DNA of 54,040 nucleotides, counting the filler, from Sluysia triapertura (lineage: Eukaryota): the NCBI GenBank assembly GCA_046118255.1. It is 4 parts of 4 records of this genome, joined end to end, with 100 filler letters (N's around TTAATTAATTAA, not from the genome) between each part and the next. Parts side by side here need not be neighbours in the genome. Positions count along the whole stretch, not along the records: positions 15,377 to 29,169 come from JBJNIA010019740.1; positions 29,270 to 41,058 come from JBJNIA010170479.1; 2 more parts are not named here. The stretch is one strand, 5' to 3'. The notes beneath the pieces are model-generated. The model was not told the DNA's origin. It searched no databases and saw only the letters and a program-made list of their open reading frames with translations. The position numbers and the translations under genes were made by a program. Positions 5,167-38,988 of this stretch are shown here, in pieces; the first letter of the stretch is position 1, and each line of letters starts with the position of its first letter.

Positions 5167-5678
5167 CTGAAAATAAAATGAAAGTTTCAGTAATCATTAT
5201 ACATTACTGTGGGTTTTTTGACAGGGTCCGCTTACATCAAACGTCTTGCAACGTGTAGTTGGCGTTTCTACAACTTGATAAGTTAATAACTACCTTAATT
5301 CTAATTTTATAGCCTTAAAACTACTCGTTGAATTCAACACTTTATAAAATACTTAAGGGTCTTTATAAACACTATTTTAATAAGATGAATAAAACTAAAA
5401 ATTCAAAAAACTTTATAGACATGATACGAAAAAAGACAAAAATAAAATTATAAATTTTCAAGTTAAAACTCGTTTAATTTTTCTGTATTTTGCTCTTCAA
5501 TAATTATTTCTTTAGAGATTTAAATTTATGTGGATTTTAATATATTAATTTTATTAATTAAAATTAATATTATCTTGTAACATGGATAATGATGAAAACT
5601 TCTCCAAAGCAATTCAAAATAACGAATTTTACAAATGGCGATTCTCATTAAATTTATGCTAGTTTACATACTAGTCAT

Positions 5679-7889: not shown

Positions 7890-8564
7890 TAAACTCAACA
7901 TAAATTCTATCGTAAATATATTTCACGACATATTTGTGTTTTATTATGAACCAATTGCCTTATTACTTTTTGTGTAAAATATAACGAATATCCTTTTTCT
8001 CTCGTGGTACTTTTTCTATGTCCAGAATTTTGAAAAACATTTGCGGTTGTTTTCTTAAATAAATAAAATTGAGCAGAGTTCGACTTACAACATATAGTGG
8101 GCGTTCTTGTAATTTAAAGCTAATAATCTTATTAAATTTATTTAAAAAACACGTATAAAAAAAACATAAATCACATTTCTTAAACATTCTACTGCTTTTC
8201 TCACATTTTGTATCTTAAAACCTTTTCATTCCTTTAATTCAAAACGTTTTATCCAATGAACATGTTAACTTTAAACCAATCAAATTAAGAGGAAAAAACA
8301 AGTAATTATTTTAAGATTAAAATCTTTTAGGGATCTTTAATCATATAATACTAGATTTTAATTTTAAAGTTTGCCCTCAGTAGATCGGGTTTTACAGTAA
8401 AATAAAATAATATTTTAATTATTAAAATAAAAATGCCCTTAATAATAATAAAGTTAACTCTTTCATAGAATAAAAACCTCGAACGAATAACCAAAGTAAG
8501 TAGTATTGTATAATTAAAAAAGTGTGTTTCTTTATGATTAACTGTCACTATTTATACAAACACA

Positions 8565-26087: not shown

Positions 26088-26270
26088 TGTGGTGAGATCA
26101 AGACAAAAACACAATCACAAACAAACTTCAACGTCATCTAACATATTTATCAAATCACCAAATAACATACAAAATATAATCAGAAACAATCGTTAACCAA
26201 CAGCACAAAGCAAATTCAATATCTATTCACAACAAACATAACTATTATAATATTACACAATTTAACATTA
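26088..26270 (+). mobile_element. LTR-like C/A-rich block
   Basis: Starts TGTGGTG; same G-poor composition as the PBS-bearing blocks. Right end approximate. Confidence 0.4.
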
Positions 26271-26399
26271 TTAAAATTATTGTTTTTTGTCATTTTTCTA
26301 TTCTTTTGTGCCTTTATTCTTATTATTCCTCTTATTCGATTAACAAATTAAATTCTCATTCAGAATTTTGTTTTTGACGAATAAACTTAGTTTTAAAGT

Positions 26400-26956
26400 C
26401 ACTGCATTTTCTACTCTTAACACTAGCACAACGGCTAGTTTGTGGAATAAAAGTTGGATTCGTTTTACAATGCGAAGTCATTTTGACGTAATACGAACTG
26501 TGTTCTTCGGTCCCATTTCAACCTATCAAATGATTGTATTAGTAGTGTTCAATAAGAAAACATATTACGCAAAGAAATTAATATTCCAGAAAAGGATATG
26601 CAAAGAAATATATGATCAATGTCTCTTAGCAAATCATTCCTTAAAGTTCCGATTAAAGAACCCAAATCAAAAATCAAAAACAATTGAATTGTCTTTATCA
26701 ATGAAGCATTTACCTCAAAAATTCAAAATGTAACTATAAAGAAACTGAGCCAAAACACGCATTGAAGAATATCTTAAAGCAATTGAAATCTCTCAAAGCC
26801 TTATCGCATAATATTTTGATCGCTGAAGTTACTGGACAACTAAAATCAAGGTTTTTACCGAATCTTCAAATGATAAAGCAAAGAAATGAATCAGTTCTTG
26901 AAAGAGATTATTTTATTCGTGCAGATTATGCCAAAAAGTTCGATTATTTGTCATAA
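26400..26956 (+). pseudogene. CUL3: cullin-3-like C-terminal fragment (cullin homology region end + neddylation domain), intronless, decayed
   Basis: VFFGP-ISTYQMIVLVVFNKK..EINIPEKDMQR..KEPKSKIKNN..FINEAFTSK and LKSLKALSHNILIAEVTGQLKSRFLPNLQMIKQRNESVLERDY..FDYLS* parallel Cul3 motifs STFQMTILMLFN, IPERELVR, KEPKSKEIEN, VNDQFTSK and EVTQQLKARFLP..IKKRIEGLIEREY. Frameshifts, stops and deletions present. Confidence 0.85.
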
Positions 26957-27439
26957 ATCCTATATTATTTTATTATTATCTACTTACCATAATAAGCAGA
27001 AAATTATACCACTAGAATAAATAATAATAAGTAAATAATGTCACATTATTAATTCATTGTACTCAACACAATTCATGAATTATAAAACTTCAAGCCACAA
27101 AGTCTTGTAATAAAATCAAATTAACTAGATCGCCATTATCAGTTATCATTGTTTTTTTATTTTTTTACTTATAAAAATTTACAGAATAAGAAATTAAATT
27201 TAACAATTAAAACTGTAAGTCTTTAATTGTTTTCTATAATAAAATTAAATTACGTGTATTTTGACCCTCAATATATCGGGTAAACTTAATGTGTTCTCAA
27301 AATACATTTAAGTGTAATTTAAAATACTAATTTTCTTAAATTAAAATTGCCTTACAAAAATATAGCTTAGGTTACGCATTGATTGAAATATAAAGGAGAT
27401 TGATAAAACTCGGGAAGATAATGATATAGATAATTCTAG

Positions 27440-28800
27440 ATATTACAATGATAGTAATTCGATTATTGATGAACAACTTGAGCTCTTAAATTCAAATACT
27501 GCGAATGTTCATTCAAACTGCTGCCAATTGCCGATGAATATAATGAAATAAGTTTAATAAATAATATTAGTAATGAAACTAAAAATTGGCAATAAAACAA
27601 AAAATAATAAAAATCCAATCGATAAAATGTTAAAACAATTTTAATGTGGCTATTTAATTATTGCAGTGGACGAGTCAAGAATAAAAATAAATATCCGGTT
27701 TAAATCCTAGCATTACTTCAACTTGGTAGAAAAGTCAAGAACTTTTAGTGTTGAACACGATATTAATGAACCACAATTTAATTCAAACATTAGAGATACA
27801 TCATGAAGCATTTGTTCCTGTCCAAGTTACAACCGATTGCATAAATGAAGCTTTAAAAGAAACTCATAAAATTTTCCCGATGTTGATGAAAATGATTGTT
27901 TGTTAATCAAGAACTGTTTTCAACAAATTTCAATTTTGCGTACAATCTTATTAAATAAAGGTAATGAAAACATTCGTGGATTCATGTAATGTTCAAAATT
28001 TTCTTAATAATCGAAGTGACGAGCATCTAGAAAAGAACAAATGCAAATACTGAAACTATGAGAATTATTGTGAACTTAATTTAAAGTCGAATGAAAATTT
28101 TGATATTGTTAATTTAAAGAAATTGAGCAACAAAAGTACTCATTTGAAAGAAAGTTTATCGACTCAGGAACATAATTTAAAACTGTTTCAAAATAAAAAC
28201 CGAATTAGTTGGAATTTGATTTAGTATGAAAGATGTTAAAAATCAAGAGGAATCTATTTTCCATGAAATTATTTATTGGCTTGCTAGATATGTTACAAGT
28301 AGAATGTCAAACAAACACAACTAATGATGTGTTTTCAGTCGTGCAGCAAATTGAAAGAGCATTCTTTATAACCGACTCAGCGGTTCACATAGTATGGTTG
28401 AAGGGCGGATGAACATCGAACTTGAAATCAAATATAATGCCAATATGAAATCTGTGCATAATCACCTTAGAGATTCGATGATATTATATTTTTTTGATAA
28501 AAAGTATGAGATAAAGCTTTTTGATGATGCTGTTTCTTTCCAGTTTATCCTAAGCGAATCAGTAAAAGGTATAAAATGGAAATAACAAGAATGTTTGATT
28601 ATTTACCATATAAACGAACAAGCACATTTCCTTATGCAGGAAAGTAGAATGTGTAGATCCTATTCGATCACCAGCTTTGCCAAGTATAATTATGCACTTT
28701 AGATTGCACTTCCATGATAAAGATGGATTAAACTTGATAATAATGAATTAAAGAAATCTACACTAGAGTTGTCAAATCTTTGTGGTGAAAACTTATTTTT
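27440..28800 (+). pseudogene. decayed intronless ORF, possibly ubiquitin-specific protease (C19)-like
   Basis: Fragments ENDCLLIKNCFQQISILRTIL, HE/LFIGLLDMLQVEC and YSITSFAKY..RWIKLDNNEL fall in the order of USP Cys box, QQDAxEF..LLD and His box; highly degraded. Confidence 0.3.
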
Positions 28801-29034
28801 AATAGTGGGTTTCTTATGCAATACTCAAACTTTTGTTTTTATTCGTAACAAAATGTTTATCCTAAAGTTTTATGTTGTATATAATAAATTAGTCAAATTT
28901 TATTATGTTATTATAGATTTTTTCTTATTTAACGTAATGTCCTTGAGGCCAACATGTATGTTAAAATCTTTTTTGTTTTAATATTTGAATTTTATAAAAA
29001 AAGTTACTTATTTGGCAAATTAATCAAGTATTTG

Positions 29035-29169
29035 TATTGGGTTGAGGAATAATTCATGAGCGTTTTTTTTCAAATTTATTTTAAACAAAAAAACAACGAT
29101 TTAATCAATAATATACTCTCCGTTGTTGTTTACAACTTCCTCCCATCGTTCAATAAGTTTTTCGATGCC
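29035..29169 (-). mobile_element. mariner 3' end, cut by an assembly gap
   Basis: GIEKLIERWEEVVNNNGEYIID* followed by TIR (plus strand TATTGGGTTGAGGAATAATTCATGAGCGTTT). Confidence 0.85.
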
Positions 29170-29269
29170 NNNNNNNNNNNNNNNNNNNNNNNNNNNNNNN
29201 NNNNNNNNNNNNNTTAATTAATTAANNNNNNNNNNNNNNNNNNNNNNNNNNNNNNNNNNNNNNNNNNNN
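29170..29269. other. assembly gap linker
   Basis: N44-TTAATTAATTAA-N44. Confidence 0.97.
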
Positions 29270-29296
29270 ATAATAATAATAATAATAATAATAATA

Positions 29297-29338
<42 letters not shown>

Positions 29339-29949
29339 ATTTTATTTACAATAAATAATTTTAATAATAAATTTGTAATATTACCAAAAATAAATGCACT
29401 TACGGATGATATATAATCGAGTCACTTGTAAATTTTTCTCAAGAAAATAGAAACGATAAATAACTGAAAGCGCTGATAAAATTTTTCATGGTGGTTAAAG
29501 TCTTGCTGTTGTTTCCGTGTGATTGTTATAATTTAGAATTTCGTGGTATCATTTGGAGATTAAAGCCTTGTGTTTTGGATTATCAAGTGGCTCCAGTAAC
29601 TCTAAATCATTGATCGATTCCTACTAATTTGATTTCTACCTGCAAATTTAAGTCATCCCTAAGTTTTTTATAAGGTTTTTTAAATTTTAAATTCATAAAT
29701 TTTAAACATTTAGTTTAGGCTAAACATTATTTGATTTTTTAAATTTGAAACAAGTTTTCTGCAAGCAATTTTAGTTATAATTAATTATTTATTATATTAT
29801 ATTGAATGCGATATTGTTGTACATTTATATGCTGTAGGTTGAACATTTATATTTAATAATTTTTACATTTGTAGTTAATAAAGTTTAAAGTTTTCGAGTT
29901 TTGTCTTTTAATTAGTAAAAAGTTGAATTAAGTTAATGAATCAGTTAAA

Positions 29950-30860
29950 GAAAATAATCAGACAAAAGTTTTAATAATAAAGTTTAATAATTAAAGTCAC
30001 AATTTTAGAATCAGCGAGAGACTGAAAAGTGTTAACTATTAATATATTTATTAAGCATACAATAAACTCATCCATTTAGGCAAAAGAATATTGGAAATGT
30101 CCATAAAAGCATACACCAAAACGTATTTTTTAAATTTAACGGTAATTAGATCCTTGGGGTTAAAGGATATTTGAAGAAAACTTATTTAGATAATACAAGA
30201 TTAAGTACATCAATTTGTTGACGCTCGCGAATTAACTGAAACTATATAAATTAACAAAGAAGACCCTTAGATAACTTAGAGAAACTTGAGACGTTACTGA
30301 AATTATAAGTTACAGAAAATGAATTCTATTGAAGATTAAGTAATTATTTAGTATTACATTTAATAAGGTAGCTAAGGTTTGAGTTACTTGATATAATAAA
30401 TAAAAACCCTTAGAAAGTTAATGAATGTTAAAGAATTATTGAGGAGTGATCGATAAAAAAGGGTTAAGACTTTATCATATCGTTAGATAATATAAGGTTA
30501 AAATACGAGCAGTATAACTAGAAAATTTCCAAAACTAATCCCGATTTTATAAGTGCTCTTACCTGCGAATATATCACCTTAGGTTTAAATCGTATATCAT
30601 AGGCAGACCATTATATTTTACACAAATTTGCTAAGCATAAGAAAAATACTAGCAATACTCATCATATCAATTTCGAGCTTATATGCCAAGTAAAGGGTTT
30701 AATTTTGGTGGCCAAAGCATCATTAAGTATTTCTTAATTTATAATTGAGTCAGTACTTTGGTTATGTTTTCTTAAAGTTTGTGATAATTTTACTTGGCGA
30801 TAATTGGAGATGCTCATAAAAAGGTATTTTATTTGGAAATTTATGTGAGATTTTGTTGAT
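29950..30860 (-). mobile_element. highly degraded non-LTR (LINE) reverse transcriptase region
   Basis: Vestiges in correct order: FINF/SKGF (DxSKAFD-like, ~30410), PQGS (~30155) and LLYA** (YADD-like, ~30055). Confidence 0.4.
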
Positions 30861-33514
30861 AGTTGAGTAATGGCCTTGTGTTATTATAAAATCTTTATTT
30901 GAGAACATGAAAAATTAGTTTATATTACGTTCCATTAGACTTGAGTGGTGAAAATTTTCCGTAATTGAAATAGAAATATAGTTGTAAACTTGACATATTA
31001 TTATTAGCTTTATATAATTTAAAAACTTTATAAAATGTAAAACTTTTATTAATAGAAACAGGGAGGATGAATCAAAAACACGTGAGTGATTTGTAAAGAA
31101 TAGAGACACGACAGGAATACAACAATTAGCATAACTTCTTACATTTTTCTTCAGGTTATGACGACTCGGAGTAGAATAATTGCTAGCAGAATAAAAACGT
31201 GAGACAATGCATGAATGAAGAATAACCGAGTATTTCGTGATTACCTTCGTTCGTTTTAATAATGACATTGTGTCCAAAACTTGATAGAATACTCATTATG
31301 ATGGAGTCTTAACCATTAGCTGTGACGATTGAGATATAGTCTTGTTTATTAATCATGGGTTTGATCTCATATAAAATTAGAAATCGAAGGAATAATGTAG
31401 TTTTGTTTATGTATATGTTCTTGTATTCAGATGAACATTTGGTTATGTATCAATTATCAATCATCGGTACATCTTTAATTATATGTTTGTATTCGTAGAT
31501 CAACGCATCGTTATCAGAATTAAATACAATTTTATTCGTAACTAAATTATCTAAATTGAACAGTGGCATCAGTAATGAATGAATCTTTATTTACAAATTT
31601 ATTAAAAATAATAAACTCGTCATTACCTTCATAGTTGTTAACAAAAACAAATGTTCATAATCATTATTTAAATAAAATATATGATTATTTACGGACATTA
31701 TCATCAAGATAGTAAGTATCTATATTCACGCTGTAAGATGTAGATCTAGCTGTTTCTGTCTTTAGGTTATAAATTATTTACATAACTTTATCTTGTTTTA
31801 CCACATAAAACCTAAACATACTTTACCTACATTTAGAATGTCTGATATTAACATTACTTTAGCTTCATTTACTACAAAATGGCTTTAAGTTCATCTACAT
31901 GAAACACAGATGCAACTTCATTTATGCTGTAGAATGCCAAAATAACTGTCTACGTTTGGACTTTCTAACATTGATATAAAATTAATTTTATTTGCAACAA
32001 ACATCGCTTTAAATTCGTTTACGATTAATACCACTGTAATTGCGTTTAGGTTATAAAATATCAACATAACTTTACGATTTTATTATGAAATTTAATATTC
32101 TCTTTTAAATTTTTGTTGACACCAATAAATCACAAAGGAATAATAAAACTTATTTGTATAAAGTAAAATTTTTCGAATGTTTCTCTCAGTTTTAATACTG
32201 TTGCTGCTGCAAATAATTAATTGTGTTTGCTACTAATTTGTGTGCTGAATTTGTTGTACAATTTATTGTACTGATTGAGCAAATTCCTAATTTTGTGGTG
32301 ACTACTAATTTTAATAGCATAAAATTAACATTATTATTATTATCATTAATATTCTTAAATTATTGTTATAATGTATTATTAAATAAAACATTAACTTCGG
32401 TTAAAAATTTTCATTTTCAATGGTTTCCATATCGCTTGCAGTTTTAATAATCAAGGCAACTATATATTTTTTGTCACATTGATTCTTTGAAATATTCTCC
32501 ACTTACCTTTAAATTATATTTCTTAATATTTGTTAAAACTTAAAATTTTGTTTCTTGATTATTACTAAACTCTAAAATGGAATCAACATGCACCCATGAA
32601 TCTGGATGTTCCTTCTAATTGGGTTAATATTCTTTCTACTAATTTCTGTTCTGAGCCGGAACCTTTATGCATACATTCAACCAAAGAATCAAGTAAATTA
32701 ATGCCCATTACACTTTTACTACTCTTTGCGATTTTGGGATTGAGTTTTTCTAAGTGAAATTCTGAAATTCCAATTTGTTGTAAATTATTAATGACATATG
32801 GAAATTTTGTGTCTTTTTTAAGTAATTCATTTGCAGACTATTCTTTTAACATTTTATATTTAACCGAGGTTATTAATAACTTGATTTTTACTTAAAATCA
32901 ACTTACCTTTTAATTTTTTTTGTGTTTTTCAATTGTGTGTTTTAATGATCTTTTTTCTGTATTATTTCGGATAGTTCTTTTTCCATTGTAATAACACTGC
33001 TTGAAGTTCATTTAGATTATCGTAATTTTGTTTATCTGTTGGATTTTTATGTTTATTTCTTTATTTAATTCATCAATCTTTTGTTTAGATAAACGTGTTC
33101 GATCTTGACTTACATCAAGATATGTTTTTTCGTAAATTTATTGTTTTGTTTTTTAAATTGTGGTTTAGTTAGGCATGAATGGCTAAAAACAATTTTATTT
33201 GTTTTCGTCACAAACGAGGAATGTGAATCTGAATAAATAAGACTGTGGAATATTTATAATAAATATAATCAAGTTGATTCTTCAGTAGTTCAGTGTTTTT
33301 ACTTTTCAAAGACAATTTAACAAAAGATATCGTAGCTTACATTTTATCTAAATCTACAGTTTTTATTAATTTTCTCAATGAACAAAAACATGAAAATTCT
33401 AAAAGCTCTAAACTTTTATTAATATTTGCAAGATTGTTTTTCAAAAAGTCAATATCATATGTTAACTTTAGATATATTTTTGTAGATTTTAAAATGAATA
33501 TAAGATTATTACTA

Positions 33515-34120
33515 TGAGTGAGTTTGAAATGTTTGATTTGTTTGAGAATGAGAACCTTTATAACATTTTACATTAGATAATTTCATGTGAAAAACCGAAA
33601 ATCAATTAAATTTTAAAAACTAAAATTAAATTCATTATTTTAATGCATGTTAACAATACTTGTAAGAAGTAAAAGTAGATCGAGTAAAGTAAAAGAAAAT
33701 AATGTTTGATTTTTAATCAATTTTTGTCTTCTGTATCTAATAAAACGTAACAAGCACTATCATGTAACTGTCAAAGTTATTATTTTTGGTTTAATTCTCC
33801 AAGAATGTTGTGATGATTTCTGTGAGAAAATGTTTGATTGGATTATGAGAAAGTCTGAAAGGAAATACGTATGTTTGTTTTTAATTGAAGGACTTATATC
33901 CTACTAAAATTCTTACTGCTCTGTTTCCAACGCTAATTTTGCAAAATGTCGTTTTCTATAATGGGTTCCCCTGTAGTGCACAACTTATTGAGGCGTACCT
34001 ACAGAAAAATCAATGACTGCTAAATTTTTTTATAAATCGAGAGTATCTCCTTATGTATTCATATCTACAAATTTATATTTATATCTTTCCTTATTTATGT
34101 CCTTAAATAATCCTTAAAAA
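33515..34120 (-). repeat. dispersed repeat homologous to 53250-53740; possible degraded LINE APE-endonuclease region
   Basis: Shared GAATGAGAACCTT, AAAAACTAAA.TTAAATTCATTATTTT and TAGATCGAGTA.AGTA.AAGAAAA. Minus frame gives TLLDL(F/L), like the APE motif. Confidence 0.55.
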
Positions 34121-36102
34121 TTATCTTTTTAATTAATTCTTCTTAATACAAAAGTAGTTCAAACCACTACCGATGACTATTGAATAAATACAATGAATTA
34201 CAATTATGTCAAAAATTAAAAAAATTTAACAAATAATTATATCAAAATGTTCAAGTAATCGGAAACGTTAATATTAACAATTATGAGCAATAATAATAAC
34301 AATAATAGTAATTGTAAAGTCCCTAAGGCTTATTTTATTTATGATGTTTGATTTTAAAAAAGATTTTGTAATTGGTCGGTTACCAACTGTTATCAAAATA
34401 ATTTAGATGGTATTTTATGGCTCCCATGAAAGTTGAGATAGATCTTAATTAAAATAAAATAAATTTTTAGATGATATCTGCAAACTATCCGAAATCTGTG
34501 AAGCTATTTTATCGAATTTGTTGTGTCTCTTTCTAAAATTTTTAACTGTATTTATATTCACTTCGTTACTTTAGTCATGCAACAGTCAATATTTAACTTT
34601 ACTTTAATAATAAACAAATCCATTATTTCTTGTTATTGTAAAGATGTATTATGAATTTTTATTATTGTCTATACATTTGTATTATTATATAAATTGTACT
34701 TTTTTGTATTATATAAATTGTATTTATATTGTACTTTTTTGTATTAATTTATAAAATATTATTATTTTTACAAAGAAAATTTACAAAACTAAATAAAATA
34801 AAATAATTAGGAATTTACAAAAAAAAGAAAATTAATTTTTTTAAATTAATTTTATTTCTATAAAAAATAAAATATATTAATGGATACTTATGAAGAATAA
34901 TGAAAATATAGCCAATTAAATTAATGAATATTAATGGATGTGCTACGTTTTTTATTATTTACTTAGCAAATTGTACAAAGTGTAATGGTCCGCCTACGAT
35001 ATACGTTTAAACTGAGGTGACGTACTAGTAGGAACAGCAATTAAAAAATCAAATTTAATCTTTCTGTTTACGAACGACCCTCAAATAATATTATTTCTTT
35101 CTACGTATTTAAATATACTCCTTATGTTAATCTTAATTTACTCGATGAATCCCGAACTTTTAAATCTTCACCACTAAAACTTTATTTGAAAATCTAAGGA
35201 CTTTTACTTAGTAGGTTACTCAAATTTCCTGACCTAATGGGATAGTCCAAATTCTACTAATTCACAAGTGTTATTGAAAAATTTTTTAGATTATCTTAAA
35301 CCCTAAATTGTTGATAAATAAAACTTCTTCGAAACGTTTTTTCGATTTAACAACTTTTAAGATCTGTCTTTTTTATTACTTCTTCATGAATTCACTAATG
35401 ATTTAAATATAATTTTAGGTAATTCTATATTCTATTGTTTTTAATTGTCTCTATTATTTATAAATATTCTTCTTTACAAATAATTGTTCTTTAAAGTCTA
35501 TCAAGTAAATTAATACAAATTCCAAGTTATATTGCAAAAAGGTGCTAAAATCAAATACAAACGTTGCTGTTACAAATATAAAAATCAAAAAAAGGTAATT
35601 AATTATGACTAGAATTACTTTTAGCAAATTTTTAGAGTTTAAACAATGAAATTATGTGTTCATTAAAAGATTTTAAGTAATATTTTGTCTTTTCTAATGG
35701 AAAGAATAACCTAATAATAAACTTACGTATAATTTAAATCAAATTAAATGATATTCATTGACAGTCGCCGGTGCCGACAATTTAGGTTAATTATTAATCA
35801 CGCAGGAGAAACAGCAATTTAAATGATACCGCTGCATTGAATCAGGCAGTAAACTTTAATTACTAATTGATGCCAAAATTTGAATTATAATGATTATCAC
35901 AAACTTTATTGGCGTTTTCAGCTTTATTTCTAGTGACCAAAATTTAAAAATTATTTTTTATATCATCTGTAAGTTTATTTATTTTTAGTAGTATTATTAA
36001 TTATTTATTTTAGGAAATCCAGTCAAATAATGTGAGTTGATTATCCATATCTTTTATTTATTTTCATTTAGGTTAACAAAGGTTAGTTTTATTTTTATTT
36101 AT

Positions 36103-36330
36103 TGTAGGGAAATCACAGCAAAGTTTCAACACTTCATCACATAAAAACATTTCTTACATACACAAAACATTAAATAAACTACTTGACTCAATAAAAAACC
36201 AAACATAGTCATTGTACAAAAATTTTCATGAATTATAGTCATTATTATTATAAATCCAATTGTAATAATAATCCTCATAATAATTTCATTTTTATAATCA
36301 TTATAGTAACATCACGATATCATTAACATC
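36103..36330 (+). mobile_element. LTR-like C/A-rich block
   Basis: Starts TGTAGGG; G-poor. TCATTGTAC..TTCATGAATTATA motif is also seen at 27054-27084. Right end approximate. Confidence 0.4.
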
Positions 36331-36440
36331 ATCATATTAAAATATATAATAATTATACTATTGTTATTATGATTTCTTTTTCTTTTACGCTTCACCTTTC
36401 TTCTTATTCTTTTGTCTGAAATTGATCGAGTAAGTTATTT

Positions 36441-37215
36441 ACAAAACCACTGAAAGCACTGAGATCAAATTTACTTCGATCTTACTTAAACGATCCTATA
36501 TCAGATAACAAATTCTTTGATGGATGCAATGATAATGAACAATGGCACGAAATGTTATTCGGTTTGTTTTTTAAGCTTTAGTGCAAGAATGACGAAAATT
36601 CGACCCACATGGTTGGCATATTCTATAAGAATTTAATGATTCTGATTTACTTATCAGTATGCGACGAATGAAGATGTTTTTAACTTAACACACTGAAATT
36701 CAACTTGCCAATCTTACGTATTTAACTGGTGAATGTAACTACGGTAGTCATATGACAGATGATAAAGACAGACGAATTCTTGTATCACTATTGCTGCCAT
36801 AACTCCAAATTATGCATTTTCTCACGTGGCACATATTACTGTCCAAATGGTGGCACACATCAAGATTTTATCGATTACACGCGTTCATTATCATTGAATT
36901 CAAATCCAGAAGTTTATGGTTTACACGAAAATGCTGATTTTGCAAAAGATACTAATCAGTTATTCAATGGAATTTTGTTAACCCTACCTCAACAAACTAG
37001 TAATTAAGGTAAGTCACCTGAAGCAGCAACAGAAAAATTGGCTGAAAACATCCTTAAAAAATTACCAAACGATTTTGACTTGGAAACAGTTATGCAAACA
37101 TATCCAGTTGTATATAATGAATCAATGGACACAGTACTTCGACAAGAATTTATCCGCTTTAACAGCCTCACTGCTTTTAAGCGAAATATGCTTCAAAATC
37201 TAAAAAAAGGTATTG
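36441..37215 (+). pseudogene. axonemal inner-arm dynein heavy chain fragment (DNAH3/7/12-like; AAA6 lid into C-terminal domain), intronless, decayed
   Basis: LRSNLLRSYLNDPISD, MLFGL.F..LVQE*RKFDPHGW, EFNDSDL, LTYLTGECNYG..TDDKDRR, PEVYGLHENAD, YPVVYNESMDTVLRQEFIRFN; several stops and frameshifts. Confidence 0.92.
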
Positions 37216-38988
37216 AAAACAGTTCAATTTAAATTTCGACAGTTAATCAAAACTTCAGAAATGATTAATAAATGTTCTGAAAAAAACTGATAGAAAATCA
37301 AGAAACAGTTTACTTCAGAATTAAAAGAACAAGAGATGTATTTACAAAATCAGATTTTGAGTCAAAAAAATTAGAGTTATCTGTAGTTGAATATCATTCT
37401 GCAAATATCAAATTCATACGTAATTTGTATAATTCTAACAAACTTCATCAACAACTACAGATAGTACCGCTTCAACGTCTGAAAATATAAAACAAATGAA
37501 TAATAAAAATTATAAAAATAAAATTAAATGTTAATCGATTTTTTTGGATGAAAACTCAAATTATTAATGTGGTATTGTATTTAATCTTATGTTAATATAA
37601 TGGAACTGCTGATGACTATTAAGATCCTGAAATGATAAAAAATTAAAAATATTTTATTAAATAAAAAATTAATATAAATGATTTTTTAAAAAAATGATTT
37701 ATGTTGCAATTTAATTATGATTTTTAAGTTACATTTACGACCGTTGCTCTTTTTTTATTGTTTGCATATTTATTGCTGCTTTATCATGGTTTAGTATTAT
37801 GATTGTTTAATATTATGGTTTAGTAAAAATGAACGTTATAATGAGCATATAAATGCGTTACAAAGATGTTCAGTTATGATTTTAAATGTATGAAATATTT
37901 TACCATGAAGTTATTCGATATATAAAGTAAATACAAATCCATTTGATTGCCATTTTTCATTATTTCCACGTGAAGTTAAAGTTGACGATAATGATGATAG
38001 CATATGGAATCAAATGCATCATATACAAAAGTCAAATAAAACAATTTACGAAATTGGTTTAAACATAGATGTAGAAAATGAAAAAATGCCTGTTTAACAT
38101 GTCGTTCGACATATAATATTACTTTGGCTAATTTAGTATCGAGCAATTTTAATTATGCACCTAATCTCGTGAAACCAACATCGAACAAGCAGATTTATGT
38201 ACTTTCATCACGTTTAAAAGAAACTCTAACGAGTATGATATATACATACGTATAATTCTTTTGCTTTCTTAATACACTTTATTTAAATATTTTTGGCTTT
38301 GTTTTAATATGTTGTTATTTATTTAAAGGCATTAAGCCTATTTCATTAACTAGTTCATTCGTTAGGAGAAAATTTAATAATTTGTTAATTAGTTTTACAA
38401 AGCTTAATGTTTTTGATAATTTTCAAACTAATATAAATAAAAAGCCCTCCACATTTATTATTATCAATATTTCTTATTGTTATTATTATTATCAATATTA
38501 TTATTATTTTAATTTTTTAATTTCAGCCGCTGGTTATCTGTGTTGTTGACAGATGCTATAAAAATAAATCATAAATAAAATAATAGATATTAATGGACAT
38601 TAATTGATTTTAGATTTTAAAATAATAGATAATGGATATAAATAGCAATTATTTCACAATTTAATTTTGGATTTTCAAGTTGAGTTTACAATTATTTTGT
38701 TCAATATTTCAAGTTGAGTTTGAGGCAATTGAATAATGTGGTCTAGTGTAATAAATCGACATTGTTTTTAGTTCGATCGACATAATTTTCTGATTCGTCA
38801 ATATCATCATTCAAAAATTAAATAGAATCATTTATCTATATATAGATTAAATTCAAGTAGTAAGTTCCTAATTAAATAGATTGGTCTCTTAACTTTTATA
38901 GGAGTCAAATTATTAAATTATTATCTTTAACTTAAATTATTATCTTTAAAAGTTAGTCTTCGGATCAAATACAAAATCTTCATAAAAT

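Follow-up and report, generated by a model that had tools for sequence, protein, structure and literature searches.

Host mRNA pieces inside a Ty3/Gypsy long terminal repeat of Sluysia triapertura

How do intronless pieces of host protein-coding genes come to lie behind repeat-derived blocks in the genome of Sluysia triapertura (assembly GCA_046118255.1; 619 Mb in 263,945 short contigs)? The question is raised by a window of 54,040 nt, filler included, with ~27% G+C and made of four joined contig stretches, which holds a cullin-3 case on contig C19740 (JBJNIA010019740.1) and a dynein case on C170479 (JBJNIA010170479.1). A preliminary description had proposed that one family of long terminal repeat (LTR) retrotransposons repeatedly captured host mRNA, each LTR-like block being followed by a pyrimidine tract and then by the cargo. 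The LTR-element origin has been upheld for the dynein case, for which LTR ends, a target-site duplication (TSD), and primer-binding site (PBS) and polypurine tract (PPT) context were found, and repeated capture is supported by the many different sense-strand host pieces in copies of the same family, while the layout proves to be another one: the whole dynein unit is one solo LTR, from a Ty3/Gypsy family, with the cargo inside it.

The dynein unit and its two ends

TGT-starting blocks at 26088 (block A) and 36103 (block B), on different contigs, are confirmed in the sequence, and both are repeat-derived, being high-copy with a sharp boundary at the TGT and G-poor (6.4% and 5.6% G, against 13.7% for the window). 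The exact 21-nt start of block B occurs 253 times in the genome (control 0), which is a lower bound, with copies differing by 10-25%. For homology, 40 of 440 candidates were scored for the 5' block A and 40 of 3,355 for the 5' block B. Homology between dynein copies extends to 38453, where the sequence ends in CCCTCCACA, so that the unit does not close at 37215 as had been thought. The unit and its parts are as follows.

36098 to 36102, plus strand: left TSD, TTTAT
36103 to 38453, plus strand: solo LTR of family B (Ty3/Gypsy), TGTAGGG...CCCTCCACA, 2,351 bp, enclosing the cargo, both ends being common to many copies
36103 to 36420, plus strand: conserved 5' block of the LTR, C/A-rich and then a T-rich tract, defined by high-copy homology
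36414 to 37209, plus strand: spliced axonemal dynein heavy-chain piece (DNAH3/7/12 type), with its parent on C235194, a Pfam AAA_lid_11 match and a PDB match
37203 to 37479, plus strand: spliced piece of a second, unnamed host gene (gene 2), three exons with two introns lost, parent exons on C198575 and C193549 having GT/AG borders
37480 to 38250, plus strand: module common to many B LTRs without dynein, with matches in all 40 scored contigs
38250 to 38453, plus strand: conserved 3' block of the LTR, with a palindrome GGC(A/C)TTAAGCC at 38328-38338 and AATAAA at 38436-38441
38454 to 38458, plus strand: right TSD, TTTAT

The ends TGTAGGG and CCCTCCACA of the window copy form a short inverted repeat of the TG...CA type, and other B copies have the terminus variants CCAAA, CCATA and CCAGA, plus an end that is 2 nt longer. 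Twenty complete family-B LTRs were collected, of 1,059-3,867 bp when measured to the shorter terminus; a 5-bp TSD is exact in 13 of these and matches in at least 4 of 5 positions in 17, against 2 and 19 of the 380 cross-pairs of flanks used as control, in a count that permits the 2-nt longer variant and omits one PBS-linked and one PPT-linked LTR. A PBS-like TGGTGTCAG stands 1-4 nt past the LTR 3' end in 6 pattern matches (control 0), and on C95079 the dynein cargo continues into the LTR end and the PBS. At two PBS sites there are 18 letters which we take to be the complement of a tRNA-Leu 3' end. At the other side, a PPT, seen as a G-run 1-5 nt ahead of the LTR 5' end, was found in 10 contigs (control 0), among which upstream homology reaches at least 600 nt in 8, 169 nt in one and nothing in one. 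The internal region of family B was reached via this PPT pattern: the DNA upstream of the PPT encodes RNase H (E 1e-11) and then integrase (E 1e-11), which is the Ty3/Gypsy order, and the best homologs of this pol piece carry reverse transcriptase, RNase H and integrase domains; a query with the post-PBS DNA of C11071 returned low-complexity matches only. With a PBS after the 3' block, and PPT and pol before the 5' block, the two blocks are therefore the two ends of one LTR, and the cargo lies between them.

This bears directly on the layout of the preliminary description, in which the block makes up an entire short 5' LTR, followed by the pyrimidine tract as leader and by cargo in place of the internal region. 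The conserved block, of ~340 nt, is indeed near the 330-nt training length of CsRN1 LTRs (PMC3601003; this and the other papers are cited here from the portions of their text that were available), and most sampled copies have no recognisable far end. On the other hand, a window self-comparison gave no second direct copy of the block behind the cargo, the PBS stands behind the far 3' block and none behind the 5' block, and the TSD brackets the whole 1-4-kb unit. For the 17 copies bounded by a TSD the layout is thus refuted; some copies lacking a recognised end could still have it, and as an account of the family it is extremely improbable. The block is rather the opening ~340 nt of an LTR of 1-4 kb with the cargo inside.

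Two side observations concern the PBS. In L114 695-1755 (C184407) and L237 (C245542), solo LTRs with the TSD CATGT in both, the PBS complement and an LTR end together form a short inverted piece, which reads as a tRNA-primed minus strand would; L114 also has what is presumably a gag-protease-like piece, judged by a motif and with no Pfam match. Moreover, the TGGTGTCAG site stands behind a different conserved end (...GCTTTTGGACGGTTCA) in L033, L061, L067 and L068, which points to another LTR family.

Host gene pieces across the family

The dynein cargo has its best PDB match in axonemal dynein heavy chain 3 (DNAH3; E 2e-41) and consists of a short upstream exon piece plus five exons, with four introns lost and a broken frame, while the same interval in the parent on C235194 is interrupted by four GT-AG introns. 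The earlier identification of a same-strand, intron-free dynein cargo was therefore correct, and parental introns across the captured intervals, a check that it had proposed, are present for dynein as for cullin-3. All 33 candidate contigs from a search with the dynein cargo were scored, and the piece was found in 19 besides the parent, 18 of which were fetched; across these 18 copies all 52 testable exon junctions are joined, and 16 have stops or frameshifts in the tested exons. The cullin-3 piece behind block A is single-copy, so that the multi-copy expectation was realised for dynein only, and both cargos are dead as had been stated, the cullin-3 frame being broken too. Six introns were lost in total from dynein and gene 2, for which a protein atlas search gave no usable match, and intron loss in a partial mRNA holds for dynein, gene 2 and cullin-3 alike. 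The joints carry short homologies: a 7-nt word at the LTR-dynein junction is common to a dynein-free copy and the parent, an internal skip within dynein has 6 nt, and the dynein-gene 2 joint has 7 nt (AAAAAAG), each with a chance probability of 0.2-0.5%. As a separate observation, L082 292-777 (C95079) has an in-frame dynein-gene 2 joint with a 162-codon stop-free stretch across it.

What lies between the conserved blocks varies widely. Sense open reading frames (ORFs; n=98) gave Pfam matches to Serinc, Ras, EF-hand, Adaptin_N, OTU and a CCCH finger, and weakly to nicastrin, and a second set (n=92) to bestrophin, EF-hand and Serinc, and weakly to RRM, as compared with none among 67 antisense ORFs; TSD-bounded copies hold dynein, bestrophin, Serinc, Ras, nicastrin and tropomyosin. 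A less-selected sample was also drawn, comprising 40 family-B copies picked solely by the 21-nt start of block B (20 minus-strand matches with at least 1.9 kb of room, and the first 20 plus-strand matches among 100 listed). Here 9 of the 36 copies with at least 600 nt downstream, that is at least a quarter, show a host domain that can be recognised downstream of the 5' block (E<=1e-3; 120 sense-only ORFs), from eight families: cation ATPase, cNMP-binding, filamin, Ras, forkhead, tropomyosin (2), EF-hand and tektin. The common 5' block ends at a median of ~340 nt in these 36 copies, and 34 downstream segments fall into 29 clusters, though some of these may represent DNA that flanks copies cut short. 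Among the complete B LTRs there was no short empty one, the smallest being 1.06 kb. Four PPT-linked LTRs longer than 900 nt have just the 5' block in common, and one PPT-linked LTR holds 52 nt matching the EF-hand cargo region. It may be added that, among the cargos to which a name could be given, several derive from ciliary, muscle or calcium genes (dynein, tektin, tropomyosin, filamin, EF-hand, cation ATPase).

The cargo pieces are shared between B copies as mosaics. The Serinc module is present in 39 of the 40 scored contigs and the module 37500-38230 in all 40, six ORFs of the module at 37480 to 38250 gave no Pfam match, and a further cargo segment matches an exon on C236471 that ends in a GT donor. 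A strict model in which the newest cargo always lies 5' was rejected: although the 3' modules are the most widely shared, dynein pairs with different 3' modules (bestrophin in C186824), and the modules have therefore been reshuffled both ways.

Taken together, these data make it probable that family B is a Gypsy lineage in which both ends of the LTR are constant, as 5' block and 3' block, while the stretch between them holds a variable set of spliced host mRNA pieces gained by template switching. Reverse transcriptase would change over to co-packaged mRNAs and later return, within the stretch of RNA from which the LTR is templated; the captured piece would then be copied into both LTRs of the daughter element and spread with it; recombination between co-packaged variants would reshuffle the modules; and LTR-LTR recombination would leave the cargo behind in solo LTRs. 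With regard to position within the LTR, the cargo is upstream of the likely polyadenylation signal: AATAAA lies within the last 40 nt of 27 of 39 LTR ends, against a background of 11% that is understated as the ends were picked by an A-rich pattern, and ahead of the T-rich tract it is found in 5 of 19, against a background of 28%, which is no enrichment. The cargo therefore probably lies in the unique 3' (U3) region or in a long repeat (R) region. Judged from sequence features, a long R region, with the promoter in the 5' block and capture at the first strand transfer, has close to an even chance, U3 is nearly as likely, and the unique 5' (U5) region is an unlikely place, its model having been set aside on the count of polyA signals before the T-rich tract.

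Could the cargo have entered after integration, by recombination of cDNA into resident solo LTRs that were then copied through duplication or gene conversion? Conversion could also give the mosaic sharing of modules, and one-off cargos such as the single-copy cullin-3 piece are in keeping with it. However, independent insertions of the same dynein cargo share the LTR-dynein junction and differ in their duplications (TTTAT, TACGC/TACAC, ATATA), and one dynein copy continues into the PBS, which leaves this explanation very improbable. Another possibility is that an LTR-shaped, non-autonomous unit with integrase-type ends, similar to Ginger or Pack-TIR elements, moves as DNA after an earlier RNA step. 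The 253 exact starts, as opposed to 6 PBS-linked and 10 PPT-linked contigs (found with looser patterns), would agree with it, as would the TGT...ACA ends with short imperfect inverted repeats. Ginger and Pack-TIR DNA transposons, however, have long terminal inverted repeats and lack a PBS or PPT, while in the window self-comparison the terminal inverted repeat is no longer than 7-9 nt, no inverted match joins the unit ends, and PBS and PPT are present; in addition, the many independent spliced cargos require repeated reverse transcription, and an excess of solo LTRs is expected anyway, long LTRs being expected to recombine to the solo form. DNA mobility is accordingly very improbable, and capture during reverse transcription, within the LTR, is the reading retained.

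Several observations weigh against this reading. A recognisable 3' terminus was found within the fetched length in 7 of the 40 sampled copies, and no B- or A-type 3' block in 18 of 24 other copies with at least 1.5 kb downstream; the downstream pieces of such copies are thus candidate LTR content. The middles of the PPT-linked LTRs and of the complete PBS-linked LTR C188987 gave no Pfam match, and intron loss was examined for dynein, gene 2 and cullin-3 only, plus the one GT donor. When a single fixed terminus is used, the TSD is exact in 8 of 13 LTRs in one set and in 0 of 7 in another. Alignment to the B 3' block succeeds for 3 of the 7 PBS-linked ends; of the rest, 2 are short inverted pieces within another LTR and 2 share just the last ~20 nt. 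No contig was found with two cargo-bearing LTRs around one internal region, and none of those fetched spans a whole element. A promoter in the 3' block was rejected, with TATA in only 8 of 39, as was the palindrome as a stable hairpin, its folding being no better than that of shuffles (z -0.76). For the second family, A, a single complete copy is available (2,521 bp, with TCTAT/CCTAT, a 4/5 duplication), and the PPT pattern gave 0 matches.

The cullin-3 unit and family A

The cullin-3 case raises the question of whether one family accounts for both cases, as had been proposed. It does not, the two blocks being non-alignable with a best local match of 17 nt (E 0.013). The parts of this unit are as follows.

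26088 to 26340, plus strand: 5' block of family A, TGTGGTGAG..., the likely start of a sister LTR family, defined by high-copy homology
26410 to 26507, plus strand: short WD40 (striatin-like) piece, 82% over 77 nt to family-A copy C117829, with a Pfam WD40 match
26509 to 26956, plus strand: cullin-3 C-terminal piece, one intron lost and frame broken, with Pfam Cullin_Nedd8 and PDB matches and parent exons on C242713 and C222778
26963 to 27389, plus strand: mosaic in which a 67-nt piece also present in another A copy is joined by fragments from two further high-copy repeats (27019-27190; 27185-27389)

The pyrimidine word T(A)TTCTTTTGT had been named as common to both cases, and it is present at 26299 and 36405. 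It is no family mark because its count in the window is at chance level (3, where 1.0 is expected and the highest count in 40 simulations was 4) and it is present in no more than 2 of 32 family-A copies, as against 18 of 45 family-B copies; as a link uniting the two cases it was ruled out on these grounds. The cargo does follow the tract on the same strand, while the cullin-3 piece is not within ~150 bp of it, starting ~200 nt past the word and behind the WD40 piece, for which striatin-3 is the one PDB match whose single stretch passes.

The identity, strand and splicing of the cullin-3 cargo had been rightly described: the best PDB match has E 1e-29, and exons of C242713 (ending in GT) and C222778 (preceded by AG) are joined, with a 15-nt loss across the junction in the window copy. 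The two parent exons are on separate contigs, that of C222778 being the last exon, and the C242713 exon, whose frame is broken at an AT run, may therefore belong to an intron-bearing paralogue. On C234882 (L074 1835-2480) a second cullin-3 retrocopy was found, independent of the first and exact at its splice junction, behind a third TGTGGTG-starting block; on C97485 a block of this third type is linked to the 3' block of family A.

Other family-A copies carry, behind the block, WD40, weak OSR1_C and Ulp1 matches, and Tc5 transposase pieces (80 ORFs, Pfam). Their shared 3' block ends in CATCCCTCA(A/C)A; in 7 of 33 loci it is linked to the A 5' block, in three copies it has a palindrome resembling that of family B, and twice a degenerate PBS follows it. 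A simple scan for a TSD, run on 15 A-type starts, yielded no convincing end, and the window copy has no 3' block before the contig end and no TSD was identified for it. The cullin-3 unit is likely an LTR of this second family, to judge from its sequence, and likely represents the same layout in an older family, now 3'-truncated.

Within the mosaic behind the cullin-3 piece, the repeat at 27019-27190 is part of a further C/A-rich block that has a T-rich tract, and copies of that at 27185-27389 are linked to window 5214-5300 and 8081-8127; the latter repeat was tried as the 3' end of family A and ruled out, as it runs on in other copies. Window 27390-28978, behind the mosaic, holds decayed coding-like stretches, with no Pfam match in 18 ORFs.

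Relation to known captures

The mechanism of capture is not new, and LTR-mediated retrocopies formed by template switching in animals have been published by Tan et al. 2016 (PMC5131818), who also cite maize Bs1 as a related case of LTR capture. Like those retrocopies, the pieces described here are partial spliced mRNAs with microsimilarity at switch points (at three junctions, of 7, 6 and 7 nt), multi-gene chimeras and re-retroposition with shared switch points. Fly retrocopies, however, replace part of the internal ORFs and are flanked by both LTRs, while a single LTR encloses the family-B cargo, which persists in solo LTRs and is variable over a family of hundreds; the word 'solo' has no occurrence in the available text of PMC5131818 or in 9 of its 10 supplement files, which were searched. 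Host-RNA-derived sequence inside the LTR, and solo LTRs with 5-bp duplications, are known from Cassandra, Helenus and Ajax (TRIMp3; PMC10886601), which hold one fixed small-RNA promoter piece in elements of <1 kb. Family-B pieces are, in contrast, protein-coding mRNA, variable, broken and in 1-4-kb LTRs (1.06-3.87 kb) attached to a pol-encoding element, and no tRNA gene was found in the window.

Kilobase LTRs are likewise known in Gypsy elements such as Ogre (1.9-6.5 kb) and planarian Burro, which has host-like domains (PMC6431247); in the accessible text on these, captured material is internal or between two LTRs, and LTR length is not ascribed to host mRNA. The same placement of LTR captures, in the internal region or between LTRs, is given in the available portions of the reviews PMC6431247 and PMC5470649, and the portion of PMC12471100 at hand has nothing further on cargo. 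As regards CsRN1-type Gypsy LTRs, compared by end motifs, the family-A start TGTGGTG fits the 5' motif TGTGGYG, the family-B end fits 6 of 7 letters of the 3' motif MSYYAMA, and CA-rich U3 stretches have been described for related LTRs (PMC3601003); unlike these, family B starts with TGTAGGG and has LTRs of 3-12 times the training length. No published family in which the LTR is a variable pack of spliced mRNA was found in the full-text literature, most subscription papers lying outside the search. What we did not find in print is thus the cargo inside the LTR as a family-wide state.

Known LTR capture is rare and fills the internal region, while here it fills the LTR, where it is doubled in each cycle and outlasts loss of the element. 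Exons thereby have a way to be shuffled across a whole family, and the LTRs keep a natural record of the mRNAs entering the particle and of reverse transcriptase switch sites; the kilobase length of some LTRs may have its reason here, and in such genomes false gene models and inflated gene families can arise from this source. A bolder and rather doubtful proposal, for which the term 'Pack-LTR' may serve, is that the Gypsy LTR acts as a standing recorder of co-packaged host mRNA, with no empty form and a mosaic of its own in each lineage, and that each solo LTR might be a ready transcription unit (promoter block, cargo, polyA signal) able to make chimeric or regulatory RNA matching host genes. 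The cargo tested is dead, with the dynein copies largely broken in the exons tested, so that no working product has been shown.

Directly upstream of the B LTR in the window there are, finally, three nested inverted matches of 68-77% identity (29363-29446/35927-36009, 29646-29787/35596-35739 and 30543-30654/34941-35050), which suggests a decayed element of ~6.7 kb with long terminal inverted repeats.

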